Shown: piece by piece, positions 24,253 through 37,058 of the stretch | Numbering within the stretch: the first letter of the stretch is position 1 | Layout of the letters: each line of letters starts with the position of its first letter | Source: Deltaproteobacteria bacterium | GTDB lineage: Bacteria > Desulfobacterota > Desulfobacteria > Desulfobacterales > ETH-SRB1 | NCBI GenBank assembly: GCA_030262895.1 | Contig: JAJSZW010000003.1 | Coordinates: 3,076 to 67,075 of the forward strand | DNA length: 64,000 nucleotides | Direction: 5' to 3' | Made by a program: the position numbers and the translations under genes | Notes under the pieces: generated by a model | Told to the model about the DNA's origin: nothing | The model's input: only the letters and a program-made list of their open reading frames with translations | Database searches by the model: none

Positions 24253-25530
24253 TCAATTCCAGATGTTGGCTTGTAGAAAAAATTCAAACAGAGGCAGGGG
24301 AATATAAAATCGGCCATCTTCTTCTTTAAAATCCTGTTTGGTCACAAGTATCATTTTTTGAGTATTGTATTTTTTTGTAAAGTTACGCATTGCAACCGGC
24401 AACCCTGATACTTTATTCTGGAATTTTACTTCAATGACATCCCTGGTTTGGCCGTAATCAACAATAAAATCAATTTCCGCTTTGCTGATGGTTCTATAGA
24501 AAAATAAATTATCTTCTGTTACATAGTGTCGCAAGGCTGCAAAGGCAAGATTTTCTGCTTCCTGCCCGCTGATATCATTGTATGTTGCAGGAAAGCGATT
24601 CAGTATAAAATTGTGCAATCCGCTATCATTAATAAAAATCTTTTTCATCTTGGACACTTCTTTTCTCGTATTTACAAAAAAAGGCGTTAAAAAATGGCAC
24701 ACATATGTTCCCTGCAGGATATCCAGGTATTTATTCAACGTGTTAATTGCAATGCCCAGTGTATTGGCCAGAGACTGCTTGTTTAGAAGATTGGCTGTTT
24801 CTGAACATAGAACCTTTATCAGGCTGTTGAATGCAGCTACATTTTCAACCCTGAGAAATGCAATGATATCTTTTTGGATATAGGTTGAAAATAATTCCCG
24901 GATAAGTGTTTTTTTAAGATCATAATCCTCAGTGGTTACAATTTCAGGATATCCGCCAAACTGTGCAAACCGGGCGAACAGAATTTCAAGTTTTGTTTTA
25001 TGCACCTCGTAAAGTATTTTCCATTTATCATAGCTGTAAGCTGTTTCTGCAAAAGCCTTTTGAATACCCGGTTCTCTGTACCTTACAACCTCTGTAAAAG
25101 ATAAGCGTCCTATTGGAAATTCTATTTTGCGGCCTGTTAAAAATTCACTGTTTTTTGTAATCTCAAGGGATGAAGAACCGGAGACAATGAACTGCATTTT
25201 ATGATGGTACTTATCATGCAGAACCTTGATAAATCTTCCGGCATCATTAATATATTGAAACTCATCGATAAAAACGTACACTTTGGCGACTGAAAAATCT
25301 ATTTCGCTTTCAAGCCGGGCCATGAAGTGCTGTGGGGTTTTAAATATGGAATTATCAAAATCTTCGTCCGCGGAAATATAAAAGGTGGTCTTGCCTTGCC
25401 TGGTAAGATATGCCTGAATCTCATCCATGATAGTGGTTTTACCTACCTGCCTGGCGCCTTTAAGAATTAGAACTTTTGCGCTATCCAGACTCTTTATTAA
25501 TGTAAAAAAGATATCTCTTGTTATCTGCAT
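24253..25530 (-). CDS. AAA-family ATPase with C-terminal DUF4143 domain
   Basis: Walker A GARQVGKTT, Walker B VFIDEFQ, and a C-terminal ..AEIDFIVDYG..VIEVKFQNKV.. block. Confidence 0.85.
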   Translation of the reverse strand: MQITRDIFFTLIKSLDSAKVLILKGARQVGKTTIMDEIQAYLTRQGKTTFYISADEDFDNSIFKTPQHFMARLESEIDFSVAKVYVFIDEFQYINDAGRFIKVLHDKYHHKMQFIVSGSSSLEITKNSEFLTGRKIEFPIGRLSFTEVVRYREPGIQKAFAETAYSYDKWKILYEVHKTKLEILFARFAQFGGYPEIVTTEDYDLKKTLIRELFSTYIQKDIIAFLRVENVAAFNSLIKVLCSETANLLNKQSLANTLGIAINTLNKYLDILQGTYVCHFLTPFFVNTRKEVSKMKKIFINDSGLHNFILNRFPATYNDISGQEAENLAFAALRHYVTEDNLFFYRTISKAEIDFIVDYGQTRDVIEVKFQNKVSGLPVAMRNFTKKYNTQKMILVTKQDFKEEDGRFYIPLPLFEFFLQANIWN

Positions 25531-28147: not shown

Positions 28148-28377
28148 GTCCTTTGAAAAGCACTCCTTTTGGTCTCCCGCTACTGACGGAATGTCTGATT
28201 AAATGCTTTGAACTTGCTTTATAAACTCAAAAGATGTCCCCTTAGCACACTCCCTCCTATACGCAGAAATTAATACCAATGAGAATTGTTTTGATCTTAT
28301 GAGCATATTTTTCATTGACACCAGTCAATCTAAGCTTTATATTATGCTCAAATGAGCGTAACAGGAGAGAATATTCA

Positions 28378-28716
28378 ATGCCCCGACCCAAAAAGCCCAG
28401 ATTTGTATCCGCCTATCCGGCCATCGCTGCTTTTGTTCCTCAGGGAGTGACCGTTACCGGCGAGATTTTTATGTCCGTGGAAGAACTGGAAGCCATCAGG
28501 CTGAGCGATTTTGAACACCTGGATCAGGAAACGGCCGCAAATATGATGGAGGTATCCCGGCATACCTACGGCCGAATTCTTGCCAATGCCCGCAGCATCG
28601 TAGCAGAAGCCCTGGTTACCGGAAAAGCCCTGAAAATCGGGGGCGGTGCATATGAATTTCGCGGCATGGGCGGGCGTCGACGCAGAAGGGGCGGAAGAGG
28701 GCATGGAAGGAGGTGA
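28378..28716 (+). CDS. DUF134 (UPF0251) family protein
   Basis: MPRPKKPRFVS..F.PQG...GEIFMSVEELEAIRLSDFEHLDQETAANMMEVSRHTYGRIL..AR matches the DUF134 pattern. It has an Arg/Gly tail. ATG at 28378 follows aggagag. Confidence 0.85.
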   Translation: MPRPKKPRFVSAYPAIAAFVPQGVTVTGEIFMSVEELEAIRLSDFEHLDQETAANMMEVSRHTYGRILANARSIVAEALVTGKALKIGGGAYEFRGMGGRRRRRGGRGHGRR

Positions 28717-28721
28717 GCGAT

Positions 28722-28928
28722 ATGCCACAAAGAGATAGAACAGGCCCCCAGGGCCAGGGCCCGAAGACGGGACAAGGCCGTGGGAAATGTGGTCCTAAGG
28801 GCGGAAGCCCTGCGCCACAGAGTCAAGGCGGTATGGAAACCGTCGGAGGACAGAGAGCAGGCAGGGGTGCCGGCCAAGGTCAGGGAAAAGGCAGAGGAGT
28901 GGGACAAGGCCGTGGTAACAGACGGTAA
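28722..28928 (+). CDS. Gly/Arg/Gln-rich DUF5320-like protein lacking the coiled-coil tail
   Basis: MPQRDRTGPQGQGPKTGQGRGKC matches the DUF5320 N-terminal signature (MP..D.TGP.G.GP.TG.G.G.C). The rest is low-complexity GQGRG. Confidence 0.65.
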   Translation: MPQRDRTGPQGQGPKTGQGRGKCGPKGGSPAPQSQGGMETVGGQRAGRGAGQGQGKGRGVGQGRGNRR

Positions 28929-28963
28929 ACGGTAATCATTCAATCCAAAACAAAATTACATTG

Positions 28964-29144
28964 AGGGCTCGGTCAAAAATAACCTGGTAGAATTTGCGCC
29001 CGAATTTGCCGTAGATTTAATCGATCTGATTGAGCAAAACCGCAGGAATAGCGGGTTATTTCGAGGACTTTTGTGATTGAAGATCGGTTAAAGATATGGT
29101 GAAGTCGGGATGCAAAAATGCCAAGTTATTTTTTACCGGGCCCT
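28964..29144. repeat. MITE-like element, family D
   Basis: Termini agggctcggtcaaaaataac / gttattttttaccgggccct. The core aaccgcaggaata..atttcgagg is shared with 3180-3316. Confidence 0.7.
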
Positions 29145-29158
29145 AAGGAGGTAATACT

Positions 29159-29518
29159 ATGCCAGGATTTGATCAAACAGGTCCGACGGGTGCCGGCCCC
29201 ATGACCGGCGGAGCCAGGGGCCTTTGTAATCCTGCAAATGCGGGATACAATCCCAGGTTCACTGAAGGCTTTAGCTATGGTAGAGGTTTAGGGCTAAGAC
29301 GCGGATTTAGAGGTGGATTCGGCCCAGACCGGGGTTGGGGGCGCGGTTTTGGCAGAGGGTACGAATGGTATCCGCCTGCTGTTGGCCCGGCTTATCCGGA
29401 GGGCGCATCCGACAAGATAGACATGCTAAAGGCTGACGCCGATTACATGCAAAAATCATTGGATGCTATCAATAAACGAATTGAGAAATTGGAAAAGAAA
29501 CCTTCCGTATCATCTTAA
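29159..29518 (+). CDS. DUF5320 family protein
   Basis: MPGFDQTGPTGAGPMTGGARGLC N-terminal signature plus a C-terminal coiled-coil (ADADYMQKSLDAINKRIEKLEKK). Confidence 0.8.
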   Translation: MPGFDQTGPTGAGPMTGGARGLCNPANAGYNPRFTEGFSYGRGLGLRRGFRGGFGPDRGWGRGFGRGYEWYPPAVGPAYPEGASDKIDMLKADADYMQKSLDAINKRIEKLEKKPSVSS

Positions 29519-29632: not shown

Positions 29633-29722
29633 TCAGACATCCAGATCATCAAGAGGACTCAAGACACCATGTCCTCCTTGTTTCAATACATGGGTGTAGA
29701 CCATGGTGAGCGATGAGTCGCT
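29633..29722 (-). pseudogene. last about 29 codons of an integron-integrase-like tyrosine recombinase
   Basis: The minus strand reads SDSSLTMVYTHVLKQGGHGVLSPLDDLDV-stop. Compare the IntI1 C-terminus [26 protein letters not shown]. No upstream part of the gene remains. Confidence 0.6.
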
Positions 29723-29966: not shown

Positions 29967-32900
29967 ATGAAATTTATTACAGATCTTCATGTTCATTCTA
30001 AATTTTCAAGAGCAACATCAAAAAATATGGATCTTGAAAATCTATATATTTCAGCTCAACTTAAAGGAATAACGGTTATCGGAACCGGCGATTTTACACA
30101 TAATGGATGGTTTTCAGAAATAAAAGAGAAATTACAGCCGGCCGAGGAAGGACTTTTTAAACTAAAAGATGAATTATCTCAAAAATGCGATGAAAAAGTT
30201 CCATTATCATGCCGCAATAAAGTCCGCTTTCTTTTAACTTCAGAAATCAGCAATATATATAAGAAAAATAATAAAACCCGAAAAAATCATAATCTTATAT
30301 TTATGCCTGATCTTGATTCCGTATATAATTTAAATTTAAAGTTAGATAAAATCGGTAACATAAAATCAGATGGAAGGCCTATTCTTGGTTTAGATGCCAG
30401 GGATCTTCTGGAGATAATTCTTGAAACATCAGAATCAGCACTCTTTATACCCGCTCACATATGGACCCCCTGGTTTTCGCTTTTTGGTTCAAAGTCAGGT
30501 TTTGATTCCATTGAAGAGTGTTTTGAAGATCTTTCTAATTATATTTATGCTGCGGAGACGGGTCTTTCTTCAGATCCACCGATGAACTGGAGGGTTTCAG
30601 GGCTGGACGGTCTTACGCTTGTATCAAATTCTGATGCCCATTCCCCTTTTAATCTCGGCAGGGAAGCGAATATTTTTAATACAAGCCTTTCTTATCCAAA
30701 TATTATATCGGCAATAAAATCAGGTAATCCAGGAGAATTTTTAGGAACATTCGAGTTTTATCCTGAGGAGGGGAAGTACCATCTTGACGGACACAGAAAA
30801 TGCAAAGTTTGTTTAAAGCCAAACCAGAGTATAGCAAATAACGGTTTGTGTAATGTATGTGGAAAACCCCTGACTCTCGGCGTATTATACAGGGTTGAAG
30901 AGTTGGCGGACCGACCCGAAGGTTTAAAACCGGAAAAATCACATCCATATTATAATGTTGTTCCTCTCGCAGAAATATTATCGGAAATTTTAAATGTAGG
31001 ACCAAAATCTAAAAAAGTTCAACGAAACTATATGGCTGCGCTCGAATCACTTGGGCCGGAATTTAAAATACTACATAATCTTTCTATAAATAATATTGAA
31101 AAAGCGGGTATTCCTTTACTTGGAGAGGCCGTTAGTCGGATGCGCGAAAAAAGAGTTGCTGTCTTTCCCGGCTATGATGGGGAATATGGAAAGGTAAAAA
31201 TTTTCAGACAGGGCGAGAAGGAAAAACTTTTAGGACAAAAACAACTGTTTGTTGTTCCTGAAGAGACAACTTCCCTTGTAGCAGACACTTTGGTTAAACC
31301 CTTAACGCATCAAAAAATCTGTAAAATTCCCAAAAAACCGGACCAAACAAAATATACTAAGCAAAAGCAAACAGCAGCTCCGCTTAATAAAGACCAGCTT
31401 AAAGCGGTTAAGCATAAAAAAGGCCCCTTGTTGATTGTAGCCGGCCCTGGCACAGGTAAAACACTTACACTCACACACAGAATCGCTTATATCATCACGG
31501 AAAGAAAGGTTTCGACCGGAAATATACTTGCTGTAACATTTACAAATAAAGCAGCTCAGGAAATGAGGGACAGGCTTTTGTTGTTAATGGATAGCTCAAA
31601 AAAGCTGCCGGAAGTTACTACATTTCATGCTTTTTGTTTTAAAATTTTAAAAGATCTGAATAACGATAAAAATTATACGATAATAGATGATTATGATCGA
31701 AAGGCACTAATAATAGAGGCAATAAAACAGGCTGAAATTAAAGGAGTTAAAGTTTCAACAAAGCCCTCAGCCCTGTTAAATATGATTGTTTTTGCCAAAC
31801 AAAACATACTTTCTCCGCAAGATAATTTAAAAGAAATAAATGAGTCGGAAACAGAAGAGCTTTCAGCTATCTATAAGGAATATCAAAGCATTTTATCAAT
31901 CCAGGGACTTTACGATTATGAAGATTTGATTTTTAATATAGTAAAGCTGTTAGAATCAGACATGGATTTTTGTAAAAAATATCAAGACAAATATAAATAT
32001 ATATTTATTGACGAATATCAGGATCTAAACCAGGGGCAATATAGAATTATAAAAGCCCTTACAAAGCCTGACAGTAATATATGTGTTATAGGTGATCCCG
32101 ACCAGTCAATATATGGATTCAGGGGTTCGGATGTTCGTTATTTTAAGAGCTTTCTTAGAGACTACCCCGAAGCTAAGGTTATAAATCTAAATCAAAACTA
32201 TCGATCAACCGAAACCATACTTGAGGCGTCATATCAGACCATAAAAAACCATAGAGATTTCAATGTATTAGGTTCGGCCGCACGTGTTTATTCTGATATT
32301 AAAGGTACAAAAACAATAAACATCATTGAGCTTGTTTCGGAAAAGGCCGAGGCCGTAGCTATTGGCAAGATAATCGAAAAAATGGTGGGAGGAATTGGAT
32401 TTCATTCTATTGACTACGGAAGCGTTGATAGTTCTTGTACAAAAAAACAGATGGGTTTTTCTGATTTTGCCGTGTTGTTTAGATCCTGGATTCAAAGCAA
32501 GATCATTGCAGATGTTTTTGATAATGCCAATATTCCATATCAGATAATAAGCAGAGAAAATGCTTTTAATTTAAAGGGTGTTTCGGAGCTGTTATCTTTT
32601 TCGAAAATAATTGACGATAAAGGTTCTTATATTGATTTTGAAAGAATTATAGATTTAACAAAACCAGGTATCGGTAAAAAAAACCTAATAATATTCAAAA
32701 CATGGTGTTATAAAAACAAATTTTCGCTTAAAGAAGCTATGTTAAAAACTTGTCGTTTTCCTGTTGATGGTATGAGCAGGTCAAGCCAGCAGAAGCTTTA
32801 TGGTTTTATTAATAACATCTTAAAAATAAAAGAAAAGATTAAAGATTTGAGCCTTGAGGAAAAACTTTTGTATTTATCTGAAAAAACAAAAATCAAAGAT

Positions 32901-33359
32901 ATAATTACAGAACAAGCCTTAAACAACACAATTGTTGTGACACGTAATCCGGATGTAAAATCCAGCGACTTTTTTTCATCAATAGCGCTTCATACAGATA
33001 CGGATATTTATTCCTCCCGGGCAGAAAAAGTCTCACTGATGACCATGCACACAGCCAAAGGTCTTGAGTTTCCGGTGGTTTTTATTGCCGGTAGCGAAGA
33101 TGGGTTTATGCCAATGAAAAGATATGGAGATGAAGAACCGGACATTGACGAAGAAAGAAGGTTGTTTTATGTAGCAATGACTCGTGCAAGAGAAAAACTT
33201 TATTTTACATATGCAAAAAAACGCAGGGTTTATGGAAAGATGATTGCAAGAGAGGTCTCTCCGTTTATAAACGATATAGAAATGAGCTTAATAAAACATG
33301 AAGAGAGCCATTTTAAAAAAACAAAAAAGAAAACCGGCACGCAGTTGAAATTGTTTTAA
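29967..33359 (+). CDS. endonuclease-Q-like (PHP-fold + zinc knuckle) domain fused to a UvrD/PcrA-type SF1 helicase
   Basis: N-terminal part: DLHVHSKFSRATS, GTGDFTH, PAHIWTPW, NSDAHS, HRKCKVC..CNVCGKPLTLGVLYRVEELA. C-terminal part: AGPGTGKT, IDEYQD, TMHTAKGLEF, YVAMTRAR. Confidence 0.85.
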   Translation: MKFITDLHVHSKFSRATSKNMDLENLYISAQLKGITVIGTGDFTHNGWFSEIKEKLQPAEEGLFKLKDELSQKCDEKVPLSCRNKVRFLLTSEISNIYKKNNKTRKNHNLIFMPDLDSVYNLNLKLDKIGNIKSDGRPILGLDARDLLEIILETSESALFIPAHIWTPWFSLFGSKSGFDSIEECFEDLSNYIYAAETGLSSDPPMNWRVSGLDGLTLVSNSDAHSPFNLGREANIFNTSLSYPNIISAIKSGNPGEFLGTFEFYPEEGKYHLDGHRKCKVCLKPNQSIANNGLCNVCGKPLTLGVLYRVEELADRPEGLKPEKSHPYYNVVPLAEILSEILNVGPKSKKVQRNYMAALESLGPEFKILHNLSINNIEKAGIPLLGEAVSRMREKRVAVFPGYDGEYGKVKIFRQGEKEKLLGQKQLFVVPEETTSLVADTLVKPLTHQKICKIPKKPDQTKYTKQKQTAAPLNKDQLKAVKHKKGPLLIVAGPGTGKTLTLTHRIAYIITERKVSTGNILAVTFTNKAAQEMRDRLLLLMDSSKKLPEVTTFHAFCFKILKDLNNDKNYTIIDDYDRKALIIEAIKQAEIKGVKVSTKPSALLNMIVFAKQNILSPQDNLKEINESETEELSAIYKEYQSILSIQGLYDYEDLIFNIVKLLESDMDFCKKYQDKYKYIFIDEYQDLNQGQYRIIKALTKPDSNICVIGDPDQSIYGFRGSDVRYFKSFLRDYPEAKVINLNQNYRSTETILEASYQTIKNHRDFNVLGSAARVYSDIKGTKTINIIELVSEKAEAVAIGKIIEKMVGGIGFHSIDYGSVDSSCTKKQMGFSDFAVLFRSWIQSKIIADVFDNANIPYQIISRENAFNLKGVSELLSFSKIIDDKGSYIDFERIIDLTKPGIGKKNLIIFKTWCYKNKFSLKEAMLKTCRFPVDGMSRSSQQKLYGFINNILKIKEKIKDLSLEEKLLYLSEKTKIKDIITEQALNNTIVVTRNPDVKSSDFFSSIALHTDTDIYSSRAEKVSLMTMHTAKGLEFPVVFIAGSEDGFMPMKRYGDEEPDIDEERRLFYVAMTRAREKLYFTYAKKRRVYGKMIAREVSPFINDIEMSLIKHEESHFKKTKKKTGTQLKLF

Positions 33360-33459: not shown

Positions 33460-33678
33460 ATGAATATTGCTGATGAAACAACGGCTAAGGAAGCTATAGA
33501 TATGTGGCGCAACAAAGACCCAAAAGAACAATTACGACAAATTCGACTATCAATTGAAACCCTGGAACTAAACCAGATGCATTATGAAAATAGAGGAAAC
33601 GAGAAAGGAGTTATAAGATCTGAAAACGCAATAGATATACTGATCCAGAGAAGAAAAGAAATAGAGTCCGAATTATAA
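33460..33678 (+). CDS. hypothetical protein (72 aa)
   Basis: ORF preceded by agggag. No family recognised. Confidence 0.45.
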   Translation: MNIADETTAKEAIDMWRNKDPKEQLRQIRLSIETLELNQMHYENRGNEKGVIRSENAIDILIQRRKEIESEL

Positions 33679-33688
33679 CTCACATGTA

Positions 33689-33740
33689 TTTTTTACTCGA
33701 CCCGCACCAACCTTTTGCGCATCAAGGACTTGCGAAAAGC
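33689..33740. repeat. Partial copy of one arm of the 2768-3084 palindromic element
   Basis: ttttttactcgacccgcaccaaccttttgcgcatcaaggacttgcgaaaagc compared with 2786-2837. Confidence 0.8.
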
Positions 33741-33742
33741 AC

Positions 33743-34418
33743 ATGAAAAAGACTTTTGATATAAAAGTTTTCATATCAGGCAGAGAATTCTGTTGTGAGG
33801 AGTGTTATGGAAATCTTGGACGAAAGGCCTGGATTACACTCGTAAAAGACAAAGGAGCGCTCTGTTTATCATGCGCTGACCTTGATCATCTTGTATTTTT
33901 GCCGGCTGGTGATGCTGCGCTGACGCGACGTGCACGAAAACATTCAACCTTATCGGCTAGTGGTCTTAAAGTGGAGCCGCGCCCGAAAACGATATGAAAG
34001 ACAAGGTCTTCTTGTCGAAGTCGAGGCGCTTGAACAGGCCGAACAAGAATGTCTCGCTGACAGTGAGGTTAGAGCACGCCGAGGAGAACGTGCCGCAGCA
34101 CAGCGGGCCGAGCTCGATCAACAATACATAGAGCAGTTTGCCCGACAAGTACGTAAACTTTTTCCTGGGTGCCCGCCTGGAAGGGAATTGAGCATTGCCG
34201 AACACGCTTGTCTGAAATACAGTGGCCGTGTCGGTCGTTCGGCAGCAGCCAAATCATTTGACAAGCAAGCCATTCAATTGGCTGTAATCGCACATATTCG
34301 ACATGCTGAGACAAAATATGATTTCTTTCTTGCAAAAGGGTACGATAGATTTGATGCACGAGCCGCAGTAAAAGATTCAGTCGATCAGATCCTGATGCAG
34401 TGGAGAGAACTCGACTGA
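33743..34418 (+). pseudogene. DUF2293-family gene split by a +1 frameshift near 33959
   Basis: ORF 33743..33997 ends ..TRRARKHSTLSA and ORF 33930..34418 continues VVLKWSRARKRYERQG..IRHAETKYDFFLAKGYDRFDARAAV. Removing the single a at 33959 joins them. Confidence 0.7.
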
Positions 34419-34547: not shown

Positions 34548-37058
34548 ATGTTGCTACTATATAACCAACAAGAAGAAGAAAATATATCCTTGATGGATAC
34601 AGTCGATTGTTTTCGGCTTGATGCTAATAGAAAAATTAATCCGGCCACACGATCAAAATTTGGTCAGTTTATGACAAATGCTTCTGTGGCTAACTTTATG
34701 GCCTCACTTTTTGCTAATATGTCAGGTGAAATTCGCTTGTTAGATGCTGGAGCCGCTGTTGGTTCTCTCACGGCTGCTTTTATCCAGGAAGCGTGTAATC
34801 GCCAAGAAAAACCAAATACAATTAATGCCACGGTTTATGAAATTGAACCGATATTTTTTGAGCATTTAAAAGAAACATTATCTAACTGTAAAGAACTGTG
34901 CTCTTTAAATAATATATTCTCTGATTTTACTTTTTTCAAAGATGATTTTATTGAGACAAACAGTAATTTGCTTTCAAATACTTTGTTTGATAAAAATAAA
35001 TTAAAGGAATATTCTCATGTTATACTAAATCCTCCCTATAAAAAAATACTATCATCATCAAAGCAACGAAAGCTTTTGAGTAGAATCGGCATAGAGACGT
35101 CAAATTTATATACAGGTTTTTTGGCGATCGCCATCAACTTACTACAAAATAATGGCGAAATGGTGGTGATCGTTCCTCGTAGCTTCTGTAATGGTCCGTA
35201 TTTCAAGCCATTTAGAAAATTATTACTTTCCACTACCGCATTTAAACATATACATGTTTTTGGGTCTAGAAAAAAGGCTTTCAAAGAAGATGATGTTTTG
35301 CAGGAAAATATTATTTTCCACGCGATAAAAGGGGGAATAAAAGACAAAGTAATGATAACATCCAGTCATGGTCCCCAATTTGAGGATATGACACAACGTT
35401 CTGTTTCTTATGATAAAGTAATAAAACCTAACGACGCAGAAAAATTTATACACATTGCTACATCCGATATGGATCAATACGTAGTTGATCGTATTTCCAC
35501 ATTTAACAACTCCCTTGAACATCTTGACATAAAAGTATCCACAGGCCCTATAGTTGAGTTCAGATTAAAAGAAGATTTGTGCAAAACTCCAGAGGAAAAT
35601 ACAGCCCCCATTTTATATCCTTTGCATTTTAATCTTAAAAGAATCGAATGGCCCAGGGAAAGCAAAAAACCAAACTATATTAAAATATCAAAAAATAGTA
35701 AAAAAGGGCTTTGGCCTAATAAAGGATATTTTGTACTCACTAAACGATTCACTGCAAAAGAAGAAAAAAAACGTATCGTCGCTGTTGTCTATGATTCCTC
35801 GCTGCCCGGCGAACTAATCGGTTTTGAAAACCATCTGAATGTTTTTCATAAGGGGCAAAAAGGTCTTTCAAAAAATATAGCATACGGCCTGTCAATTTAT
35901 CTTAATAGCACTCTGGTTGATAAATATTTCCGTTTATTTAGCGGACATACGCAGGTAAATTCAACAGATTTGAGGTCGCTTTATTATCCTCCGTTACATG
36001 TACTCGAATCTCTTGGAAGTAAAATAGGCGGGAATTATCCAAATCAACACAAAATAGATGCATTAATTAATGAGGAATTAATACAAATGACTGACAAGGA
36101 AGGATTTGATCCAGTTGTAGCGCAACAAAAAATTGACGAGGCTTTAGAAATAGTTAAGGCTCTTGGCCTTCCTCGTGGACAACATAATGAAAGATCTGCC
36201 TTGACATTGTTAGCTATTCTAAATTTACGTCCAGAGTTAAGCTGGAAAAAATCAGAAAGGCCATTAATGGGCATCACACCTATCATGGATTGGTGTCGCA
36301 ACAATTATGGTAAAGAGTATGCGCCAAATACTCGTGAAACATTTCGAAGACAGACAATGCATCAGTTTGTTGATGCCGGCATAGCCGTCTATAATCCTGA
36401 TCAACCGGATAGGCCGGTGAATAGCCCTAAAACATGTTATCAAATTAGTTCTGAAGCCTTTGATGTTATCCTGACATTCGGCACTGATAAATGGAAAAAA
36501 GCTCTGGCAAAACATCTCTCACAAAAGGAAACTCTTATCCAGCGTTACGCAAAGGAACGGGATATGCAAATGATTCCCGTTGAATTGGCTAAAGGAAAAG
36601 AAATTAAGTTAACTCCTGGAGTTCACAGCCGGCTTATAAAGGACATCATAAAAGAGTTCGGGCCGCGCTTTGCCCCTGGAAGTGAAGTGGTTTATGTTGG
36701 GGATACAGGAGATAAAACAGGTTACTTTCAAAAAGACAGGCTGGAAGAGTTGGGAGTTGAGGTCGACAGGCACGGTAAAATGCCGGACGTTGTTCTCTAT
36801 TACCCGGCAAAAAACTGGCTGCTTCTTATAGAAGCTGTAACCAGTCATGGACCAGTTGATGCCAAGAGACACAGTGAACTATCCAGACTTTTTGAGACGG
36901 CTGTGCCCGGACTGGTTTATGTTACAGCATTTCCGGACAGAGCAACAATGGGGAGATACCTTGCTGAAATATCATGGGAAACAGAAGTATGGGTGTCTGA
37001 AGCTCCAACACATATAATTCATTTCAATGGAGAAAGATTTTTAGGCCCATATGAATAA
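34548..37058 (+). CDS. fusion of a gamma-class N6-adenine methyltransferase with a BsuBI/PstI-family restriction endonuclease
   Basis: N-terminal part: LLDAGAAVGSL then VILNPPYKK. C-terminal part: ALGLPRGQHNERSALTLLAIL and HGKMPDVVLYYPAKNWLLLIEAVTSHGPV. It is one uninterrupted frame, with an alternative start at 34593. Confidence 0.8.
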   Translation: MLLLYNQQEEENISLMDTVDCFRLDANRKINPATRSKFGQFMTNASVANFMASLFANMSGEIRLLDAGAAVGSLTAAFIQEACNRQEKPNTINATVYEIEPIFFEHLKETLSNCKELCSLNNIFSDFTFFKDDFIETNSNLLSNTLFDKNKLKEYSHVILNPPYKKILSSSKQRKLLSRIGIETSNLYTGFLAIAINLLQNNGEMVVIVPRSFCNGPYFKPFRKLLLSTTAFKHIHVFGSRKKAFKEDDVLQENIIFHAIKGGIKDKVMITSSHGPQFEDMTQRSVSYDKVIKPNDAEKFIHIATSDMDQYVVDRISTFNNSLEHLDIKVSTGPIVEFRLKEDLCKTPEENTAPILYPLHFNLKRIEWPRESKKPNYIKISKNSKKGLWPNKGYFVLTKRFTAKEEKKRIVAVVYDSSLPGELIGFENHLNVFHKGQKGLSKNIAYGLSIYLNSTLVDKYFRLFSGHTQVNSTDLRSLYYPPLHVLESLGSKIGGNYPNQHKIDALINEELIQMTDKEGFDPVVAQQKIDEALEIVKALGLPRGQHNERSALTLLAILNLRPELSWKKSERPLMGITPIMDWCRNNYGKEYAPNTRETFRRQTMHQFVDAGIAVYNPDQPDRPVNSPKTCYQISSEAFDVILTFGTDKWKKALAKHLSQKETLIQRYAKERDMQMIPVELAKGKEIKLTPGVHSRLIKDIIKEFGPRFAPGSEVVYVGDTGDKTGYFQKDRLEELGVEVDRHGKMPDVVLYYPAKNWLLLIEAVTSHGPVDAKRHSELSRLFETAVPGLVYVTAFPDRATMGRYLAEISWETEVWVSEAPTHIIHFNGERFLGPYE

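Follow-up and report, generated by a model that had tools for sequence, protein, structure and literature searches.

A predicted endonuclease Q–UvrD-type helicase fusion with two β-clamp-binding-type motifs, a probable DNA-repair enzyme of the Desulfobacterales

The 64,000-nucleotide stretch of DNA analysed here (the window; contig JAJSZW010000003.1, from a metagenome-assembled genome (MAG) of the order Desulfobacterales) carries at positions 29967..33359 of the plus strand a gene, P0001, for an 1130-residue protein in which an endonuclease Q (EndoQ) module is followed by a UvrD/PcrA-type helicase. The reading frame opens with ATG, has no internal stop and ends with a stop codon at 33357-33359. 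A first-pass annotation made from the sequence had recognised both halves. All of the peptides that it quoted are present in this frame, and the profile and Protein Data Bank (PDB) matches described below, together with the intact motifs of both modules, confirm that the EndoQ–UvrD architecture is real and was correctly recognised. The protein is probably a chromosomal, vertically inherited, clamp-tethered nick-and-unwind repair enzyme that combines three functions in a single chain. Near-identical proteins are present in NCBI and JGI records, and homologues 98% identical to the fusion are labelled ‘UvrD-helicase domain-containing protein’ in Desulfobacterales MAGs. Scans for promoters and terminators near the gene found no signal above that of shuffled sequences.

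The EndoQ module comprises residues 1-420 (29967..31226, plus strand) and includes PHP-like catalytic, Zn-binding and C-terminal helical domains, as judged from alignment to the structures 5zb8 and 7k30 of the Pyrococcus furiosus enzyme (PfuEndoQ). With the whole protein as query, fusion residues 5-420 aligned with PfuEndoQ residues 5-390 (E about 1e-47), and the module searched alone against 5zb8_A gave an E-value of 5.5e-49. Moreover, the NCBIfam EndoQ family TIGR00375 matched residues 6-410 (E 2.5e-47, 162 bits), and the precomputed Pfam family PF27218 is assigned to homologues of the fusion. The concern raised in the first-pass annotation, that the N-terminal region might resemble no EndoQ profile, is thus set aside by both the family profile and the PfuEndoQ structures.

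The two zinc ions of PfuEndoQ are held by H8, H10, E76, H84, H139 and D193 (plus H195), and its lesion pocket is formed by H139, T142, E167-L170, N191 and D193, with W144 as a wedge (Miyazono et al., 2018; PMC5961232); a review of EndoQ–DNA complexes adds S171 to this set (PMC8307549). In the fusion the aligned metal ligands are H8, H10, E93, H108, H164, D223 and H225, and the pocket is represented by H164, T167, E197, G199, L200, S201 and N221, with W169 as the wedge. When 133 diverse full-length fusions (cluster representatives at 50% identity) were aligned, all seven metal ligands were found in 133/133 and the pocket residues were essentially invariant. The sole systematic change in the pocket, from PfuEndoQ L168 to T198 within an ETGLS motif, is common to 10/10 sampled stand-alone bacterial EndoQs of the phylum. 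The EndoQ module of the fusion is complete and apparently active.

A zinc knuckle of the form CxxC..CxxC had also been claimed for this region. A zinc site does exist, and all four ligands can be aligned to PfuEndoQ, as can the helical domain up to PfuEndoQ residue 390; however, the real ligand set is H276, C279, C295 and C298 (30792..30860, plus strand), arranged as H276-x2-C279...C295-x2-C298 with a His in place of the first PfuEndoQ Cys. The residue that would have completed the first CxxC, C282, is no conserved ligand, being Cys in 42 and Arg in 65 of the 133 fusions. The identical H-x2-C...C-x2-C pattern is present in ten stand-alone bacterial EndoQs of the phylum.

The second half of the protein, residues 472-1110 (31380..33296, plus strand), is a superfamily 1A (SF1A) helicase of the UvrD/PcrA type. 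Pfam PF00580 matched residues 473-734 over profile positions 1-271 of 271 (E 5e-78) and PF13361 (UvrD_C) matched residues 739-1084 over positions 1-349 of 350 (E 7e-47), while residues 467-1110 aligned with residues 6-647 of Geobacillus PcrA (1pjr; E 7.5e-106), continuously across domains 1A, 1B, 2A and 2B. The helicase motifs are complete: I, AGPGTGKT (492-499); II, DEYQD (682-686); III, GDPDQSIY (709-716); IV, QNYRS (743-747); V, TMHTAKGLEF (1026-1035); and VI, YVAMTRAR (1068-1075), and all six are conserved across the 133 fusions. The NCBIfam models TIGR01073 pcrA (E 4e-143) and uvrD (E 2e-111) also match, but both far under their equivalog cut-offs (478 bits against 911 and 373 against 1144, respectively), and the fusion helicase does not qualify as an orthologue of housekeeping PcrA or UvrD. 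Taken together the helicase matches span residues 472-1121. The PcrA alignment ends at PcrA residue 647 of 724, with nine fusion residues remaining, and the C-terminal Tudor-like domain by which PcrA and UvrD bind RNA polymerase is therefore absent from the fusion.

Two motifs of the β-clamp-binding type had been overlooked in the first-pass annotation. The internal one, QKQLF (residues 424-428; 31236..31250, plus strand), stands directly after the EndoQ module, and the other, QLKLF (residues 1126-1130; 33342..33356, plus strand), forms the extreme C-terminus of the protein (...KKTKKKTGTQLKLF-COOH). Both fit the β-clamp consensus QL[S/D]LF at the level of sequence, and both are located in segments of low conservation and low predicted local distance difference test (pLDDT) score. 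The internal motif is followed by a poorly conserved linker, residues 429-471 (31251..31379, plus strand), and the terminal one is preceded by a poorly conserved Lys-rich tail, residues 1111-1125 (33297..33341, plus strand). Mean column conservation among the 133 fusions is 0.65 for the EndoQ module, 0.40 for the helicase, 0.23 for residues 421-471 and 0.17 for the tail; against the 0.17-0.23 of such tail and linker segments, the C-terminal motif itself scores 0.73. At the internal site Q424 is found in 106, L427 in 103 and F428 in 104 of the fusions, the corresponding numbers for the C-terminal motif being 124 (Q), 123 (L) and 106 (F), and in nearly all of 107 full-length close homologues a Lys-rich tail leads into a terminal QLxLF or a sequence close to it. 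An AlphaFold2 (AF2) model of the full protein (45 homologues) was used solely to judge linker disorder: residues 423-471 have pLDDT values below 50 and are predicted to be disordered.

Comparison with stand-alone enzymes suggests how this arrangement arose. Ten stand-alone EndoQs of the phylum (~416-422 residues) end in QLKLF, QLSLF, QMRLF or similar, about 10-20 residues past a PGxDGxYG strand that is also present in the fusion. Because these proteins end in QLxLF at the same position after PGxDGxYG, the internal motif of the fusion represents the C-terminal clamp motif that an ancestral stand-alone EndoQ already carried, and the helicase was added behind it together with a second clamp-type motif. 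For archaea there is experimental precedent: the C-terminal PCNA-interacting peptide (PIP box) of the Thermococcus kodakarensis enzyme (TkoEndoQ) binds PCNA with a dissociation constant of 55 nM, and cleavage is stimulated by PCNA (PMC4858679).

The fusion is a near-core chromosomal gene of the order and is widespread in the phylum. An EndoQ domain was found in 129/151 genomes of the order, in 100/112 of those of high quality and in 99/110 genera; some 100 of roughly 120 strong order-level matches lie in open frames of 900-1370 residues, mostly 1100-1200, and the fusion itself is present in about 66% of the sampled genomes. In a phylum-wide sample the domain was present in 140/201 genomes, with ~56 frames of at least 875 residues and ~75 of ~385-580 residues. 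A word-indexed protein search returned at least 8000 database matches (8000/8000 scored candidates), and the top 120 all combine UvrD with PF27218 in proteins of ~1130-1150 residues from Desulfobacterales, Desulfobacteraceae or Thermodesulfobacteriota MAGs. Among 1.84 billion representatives searched exhaustively there are 3746 clusters with an EndoQ domain, and the 150 closest of these are almost all 1000-1270 residues long. In a tree of EndoQ domains the fused forms are split from 9/10 stand-alone forms at a branch with 99% support in the Shimodaira–Hasegawa-like approximate likelihood ratio test (SH-aLRT), and three ‘stand-alone’ sequences nest within the fused clade. This topology fits one fusion event followed by secondary losses. 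As for mobile elements, no EndoQ-domain match was found in phage records, and 1/72,556 plasmids carries the domain; this distant copy, labelled ‘endonuclease Q family protein’, is a stand-alone EndoQ encoded by a Brevibacillus megaplasmid of 733 kb.

The invariance or conservation of the metal ligands, the lesion pocket and the SF1A motifs in the 133 fusions supports a role in DNA repair, and the near-core distribution, the single fused clade, the absence of phage copies and the synteny with dnaN and gyrB seen in some relatives (see below) support a housekeeping one. The proposal that the protein nicks and then unwinds, already put forward in the first-pass annotation, is still the best mechanistic reading of a complete EndoQ and a complete SF1A motor in one chain. 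That annotation had also named a finding that would speak against its own reading, namely that the fusion is a universally conserved core gene of the order with a known role in repair: the gene is indeed near-core in the order and widespread in the phylum, but the repair role is one that we infer.

SF1A motors travel 3′ to 5′ on the strand that they hold, and UvrD is the textbook example of a helicase that starts unwinding at a nick, in nucleotide excision repair and mismatch repair. In the mechanism envisaged, the EndoQ module would flip out a uracil, hypoxanthine, xanthine or abasic (AP) site and cut the phosphodiester bond immediately 5′ of the lesion, leaving a 3′-OH and a 5′-phosphate that carries the lesion, which are the product ends described for EndoQ (PMC4357722). 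The helicase, held on a flexible linker of ~45 residues, would then load at the nick and unwind the duplex, so that the lesion strand is displaced as a flap or gap for processing by a polymerase and a 5′-nuclease and ligase. Given the 3′–5′ polarity, peeling away the lesion strand requires the motor to engage the intact strand at the nick and to travel downstream from there; this movement would produce a 5′ flap tipped by the lesion, the polymerase extending the 3′-OH and the 5′-nuclease resolving the flap. The sequence can also accommodate a motor that tracks the nicked strand back from the 3′-OH. The two QxxLF motifs would dock the enzyme on β clamps that remain on DNA or are loaded at the nick, and would thereby link it to replication or to repair synthesis, much as archaeal EndoQ is linked to PCNA by its PIP box. 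The homology, the intact catalytic and helicase motifs, their conservation and the distribution of the gene are observed; for the substrates, the link between nicking and unwinding, the polarity of the motor and docking on the clamp, we infer from the established properties of the two protein families.

Several observations weigh against this interpretation. The 162-bit score of the EndoQ module falls below the TIGR00375 equivalog cut-off of 326.6 bits, which 0/151 genomes of the order reach, and the fused EndoQ is thus a diverged EndoQ subfamily. The AF2 model (predicted template modelling score 0.49, with the 2A domain and the tails poorly modelled) says nothing about an interface between nuclease and helicase. 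A literature search found no measured activity for any fused EndoQ–helicase, in agreement with the earlier statement that no experimentally characterised example was known. An integrase relic, a restriction-modification (R-M) gene and a candidate defence gene lie near the fusion gene in the window. Genes of the uracil-DNA glycosylase (UDG) superfamily were found in every high-quality genome of the order (47/47), and the fusion is thus not the sole route of uracil repair. Finally, the helicase is dispensable in some lineages: in a sister genus of the same family it has lost its core or been dropped altogether, and both genomes lack it. One of these (G104, locus L002, 886-2935) encodes a 477-residue EndoQ frame with an internal QKSLF, followed by a separate 196-residue helicase remnant that retains only motifs V and VI and still terminates in QLTLF; the other (G023, locus L001, 7633-8955) encodes a 440-residue EndoQ and no helicase. 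Evidently the nuclease can be kept without the motor.

This last point bears on the possibility that the helicase half simply serves as the lineage's general UvrD, acting in nucleotide excision repair, mismatch repair and fork clearing, with EndoQ as a passenger and nicking and unwinding uncoupled. The persistence of EndoQ without a helicase in the sister genus shows that it can work alone, and the fusion does contain a complete PcrA/UvrD-like SF1A helicase with an intact PcrA-like core. However, a search for a separate uvrD or pcrA, as the first-pass annotation had advised, found other UvrD-family helicases in the same genome: a 620-residue protein on contig C32, which scores 536 bits against pcrA (478 for the fusion), and a 776-residue protein on contig C62, which aligns to the end of PcrA/UvrD with the C-terminal domain included. 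RecB, RecD and RecD2 are encoded as well. Moreover, the fusion helicase lacks the RNA polymerase-binding C-terminal domain used in transcription-coupled roles. The same domain arrangement is also kept across phyla, and this stability speaks for selection to keep the two halves physically joined. An uncoupled general UvrD is accordingly an unlikely description of the protein, and the idea that the fusion is the only UvrD of this genome is rejected by the helicases on C32 and C62. As a separate observation, the RecB-like frame (1235 residues; contig C8, 1197-4901, plus strand), which is followed by RecD on the same contig, contains one in-frame TAG that could mark a pseudogene, a sequencing error or read-through.

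The same UDG counts rule out the fusion as a replacement for UDG; no UDG superfamily match was found in the window's own MAG, which is 85% complete, so this may reflect incompleteness. The situation differs for hypoxanthine, for which EndoV is the usual endonuclease. EndoV (PF04493) was found in 4/41 genomes of the order and not in that of the window, and because of this rarity the fusion may be the main hypoxanthine endonuclease in this genome and order. Extending this, we suggest tentatively, and with rather less conviction than the repair role itself, that the fusion could define a glycosylase-independent, clamp-coupled nick-and-unwind pathway, which would be the principal hypoxanthine and AP-site route and a back-up uracil route in many bacterial lineages without EndoV, this order among them, the appended helicase having supplied the step that follows the EndoQ nick.

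A clamp-bound enzyme might alternatively work at the replication fork itself, scanning nascent or template DNA for deoxyuridine and deoxyinosine while its helicase remodels stalled forks. The two clamp-type motifs and the proximity to dnaN and gyrB in 6/16 relatives are compatible with this, and archaeal EndoQ both cuts single-stranded as well as double-stranded DNA and binds PCNA. The sequence offers no distinction between such a role and post-replicative repair, but nicking of single-stranded template at a fork would create a double-strand end, and we consider a dedicated fork enzyme improbable.

The dnaN–gyrB proximity was the single recurrent neighbourhood detected among 16 relatives. In six loci (L003, L007, L008, L012, L014 and L016; for example L007, 2896-7620, minus strand) the fusion gene is accompanied by a divergent RdgC-like gene, a 174-residue open reading frame (ORF), dnaN and gyrB, an arrangement that is absent in the window. 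The 174-residue ORF is conserved and of no recognised family. In the window the fusion gene is preceded by DUF134 and DUF5320 genes and followed by DUF2293, a gene for a type II methylase–BsuBI/PstI endonuclease fusion, rsmD and coaD. None of the window neighbours lies within 8 kb of the fusion in the 16 relatives, which disposes of a conserved operon partner among them. Since these neighbours are unconserved, the ‘accessory patch’ of the first-pass annotation is local to the window and has little bearing on function.

Three of the local features nonetheless have to be considered as signs of a defence locus. Upstream of the fusion gene, at a distance of ~250 nt, there is an integrase relic at 29633-29720 (minus strand; encoding SSLTMVYTHVLKQGGHGVLSPLDDLDV). 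This 27-residue piece is the C-terminal fragment of an IntI/Xer-type tyrosine recombinase (…MVYTHVLKQGGHGVLSPLDDL) and shares 67% identity over 24 residues with the end of an intact IntI/Xer-type recombinase (347-residue open frame) encoded on contig C37 of this genome; Pfam gave no score for so short a piece. The R-M fusion at 34548-37058 (plus strand, 836 residues) combines an Eco57I-type N6-adenine methylase, in its N-terminal half, with a BsuBI/PstI-type endonuclease (helix-turn-helix and catalytic domains), with a full-length match to the PADLOC model MTase_II PDLC03359 (1190 bits) and a further match to REase_II PDLC03420. An AAA_14/DUF4143 ATPase at 24253-25530 (minus strand) matches PDC-S01, a candidate-defence family of PADLOC, along its whole length (E 1e-69). 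The first-pass annotation had described the relic and the R-M gene accurately, and had concluded from this setting that a role against foreign DNA was as plausible as repair. In that account the protein would be an anti-phage or anti-foreign-DNA nuclease-helicase that nicks invading DNA containing uracil or modified bases and unwinds or degrades it; the helicase half also scores against PADLOC models of Gabija GajB, and an antiviral side role has been suggested for Bacillus EndoQ, according to a review (PMC8307549) that cites Shiraishi 2017 for it.

The conclusion is not supported for a gene that is near-core in the order and whose window neighbours recur in 0/16 relatives. The GajB matches are those expected of any UvrD-family helicase, and the EndoQ part has no PADLOC match; membership of Gabija (GajA/GajB) or of another catalogued defence system is not indicated by such generic GajB/UvrD matches on the helicase half. 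No GajA-like partner is adjacent, the adjoining genes being DUF5320 and DUF2293, and no conserved partner occurs in the 16 relatives. Phage-borne copies are lacking and plasmid-borne ones essentially so, and the clamp-type motifs and the dnaN–gyrB synteny point instead to host replication and repair. Defence as the main role is rejected on the evidence of PADLOC, the phage and plasmid collections and synteny in the 16 relatives, and there is little chance that the protein is primarily an anti-foreign-DNA system.

Some further features of the surroundings were recorded. With DUF2293 on one side and rsmD/coaD on the other, the R-M fusion has the look of an insertion. The DUF2293 gene (33665-34418, plus strand) appears to be split over overlapping frames at 33743-33997 and 33930-34418, which might mean a pseudogene with a frameshift or an error in the assembly; the guanine-plus-cytosine (GC) content of this region is ~46%, against ~35% in the flanking genes. 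The DUF134 and DUF5320 pair (28315-29518, plus strand) has a GC content of 50-52%, against 32-40% around it, and the DUF5320 product is rich in Gly and Arg.

A repair enzyme of the kind proposed would bear on a step in alternative excision repair that is still open, namely what follows the EndoQ or EndoV nick. The models in the 2015 EndoQ paper have an unnamed helicase or a strand-displacing polymerase remove the lesion after nicking (PMC4357722). An EndoQ joined covalently to a UvrD-type motor and to clamp-type motifs suggests an answer that could be tested with one recombinant protein. The fusion is very common, with at least 8000 database proteins and a presence in ~66% of sampled genomes of the order, and its function therefore matters for the way in which C>T and A>G mutations are kept down across a large share of the diversity of anaerobic bacteria.

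The protein belongs as an ordinary member to a recurrent family that has already been catalogued; the window did not bring it to light. Shiraishi et al. (2016; Sci Rep 6:25532, PMC4858679, Suppl. Fig. S1) listed bacterial EndoQ homologues of ~940-1244 residues with a C-terminal QLxLF from Desulfobacterium, Desulfobacter, Geobacter, Desulfovibrio, Myxococcota, Bacteroidota, Spirochaetota, Actinomycetota, Chloroflexota, Verrucomicrobiota and Proteobacteria, including Desulfobacterium autotrophicum WP_015906045 (1156 residues) and Geobacter metallireducens WP_004512662. The present fusion shares the length class, the C-terminal QLxLF and the bacterial order of these proteins, and by these features it is a further member of the set. 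Shiraishi et al. tabulated the clamp motif only, however, and the word ‘helicase’ is absent from their text and supplement. The first-pass annotation had made no mention of these long QLxLF homologues, which were already tabulated in 2016. A sorting of EndoQ into three families by domain organisation was published in 2017, as cited by Miyazono et al. (2018; PMC5961232); with that definition available through its citation only, the literature search found no paper that describes an EndoQ–helicase fusion as such.

Compared with archaeal EndoQ (PfuEndoQ PF1551 and TkoEndoQ TK0887; PDB 5zb8 and 7k30-7k33), the fusion contains the same three-domain nuclease, aligned over its full length, with the metal ligands and lesion pocket retained and a clamp-binding-type peptide after the helical domain. 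It differs in its identity of at most ~30%, in the His at the first Zn ligand, in the Thr at the L168 position, in a bacterial QxxLF instead of a PIP box and in the ~650 residues of helicase appended. The stand-alone bacterial EndoQs of the same phylum (~416-422 residues) are closer, at 46-51% identity to the N-terminal module, and share ETGLS, AHxWTPW, SNSDAH, the H-x2-C...C-x2-C site and a QLxLF end at the point that corresponds to the internal motif in the fusion; they carry no helicase, however, and none is encoded in the ~5 kb to either side of their genes, and they fall on the other side of the 99% branch. Stand-alone EndoQ of Bacillus pumilus and B. subtilis has been shown to be active (PMC5961232).

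On the helicase side, PcrA, UvrD and Rep (1pjr, 2is1 and 9dci) share with the fusion a continuous core alignment and all motifs, whereas the fusion helicase scores under the equivalog cut-offs and has a clamp-type motif in place of the Tudor-like domain. Like AddA and RecB, the fusion has its SF1A motor and its nuclease on a single polypeptide; the nuclease of AddA and RecB, however, is a C-terminal PD-(D/E)XK domain that processes ends, whereas that of the fusion is an N-terminal, PHP-type nicking enzyme of predicted lesion specificity.

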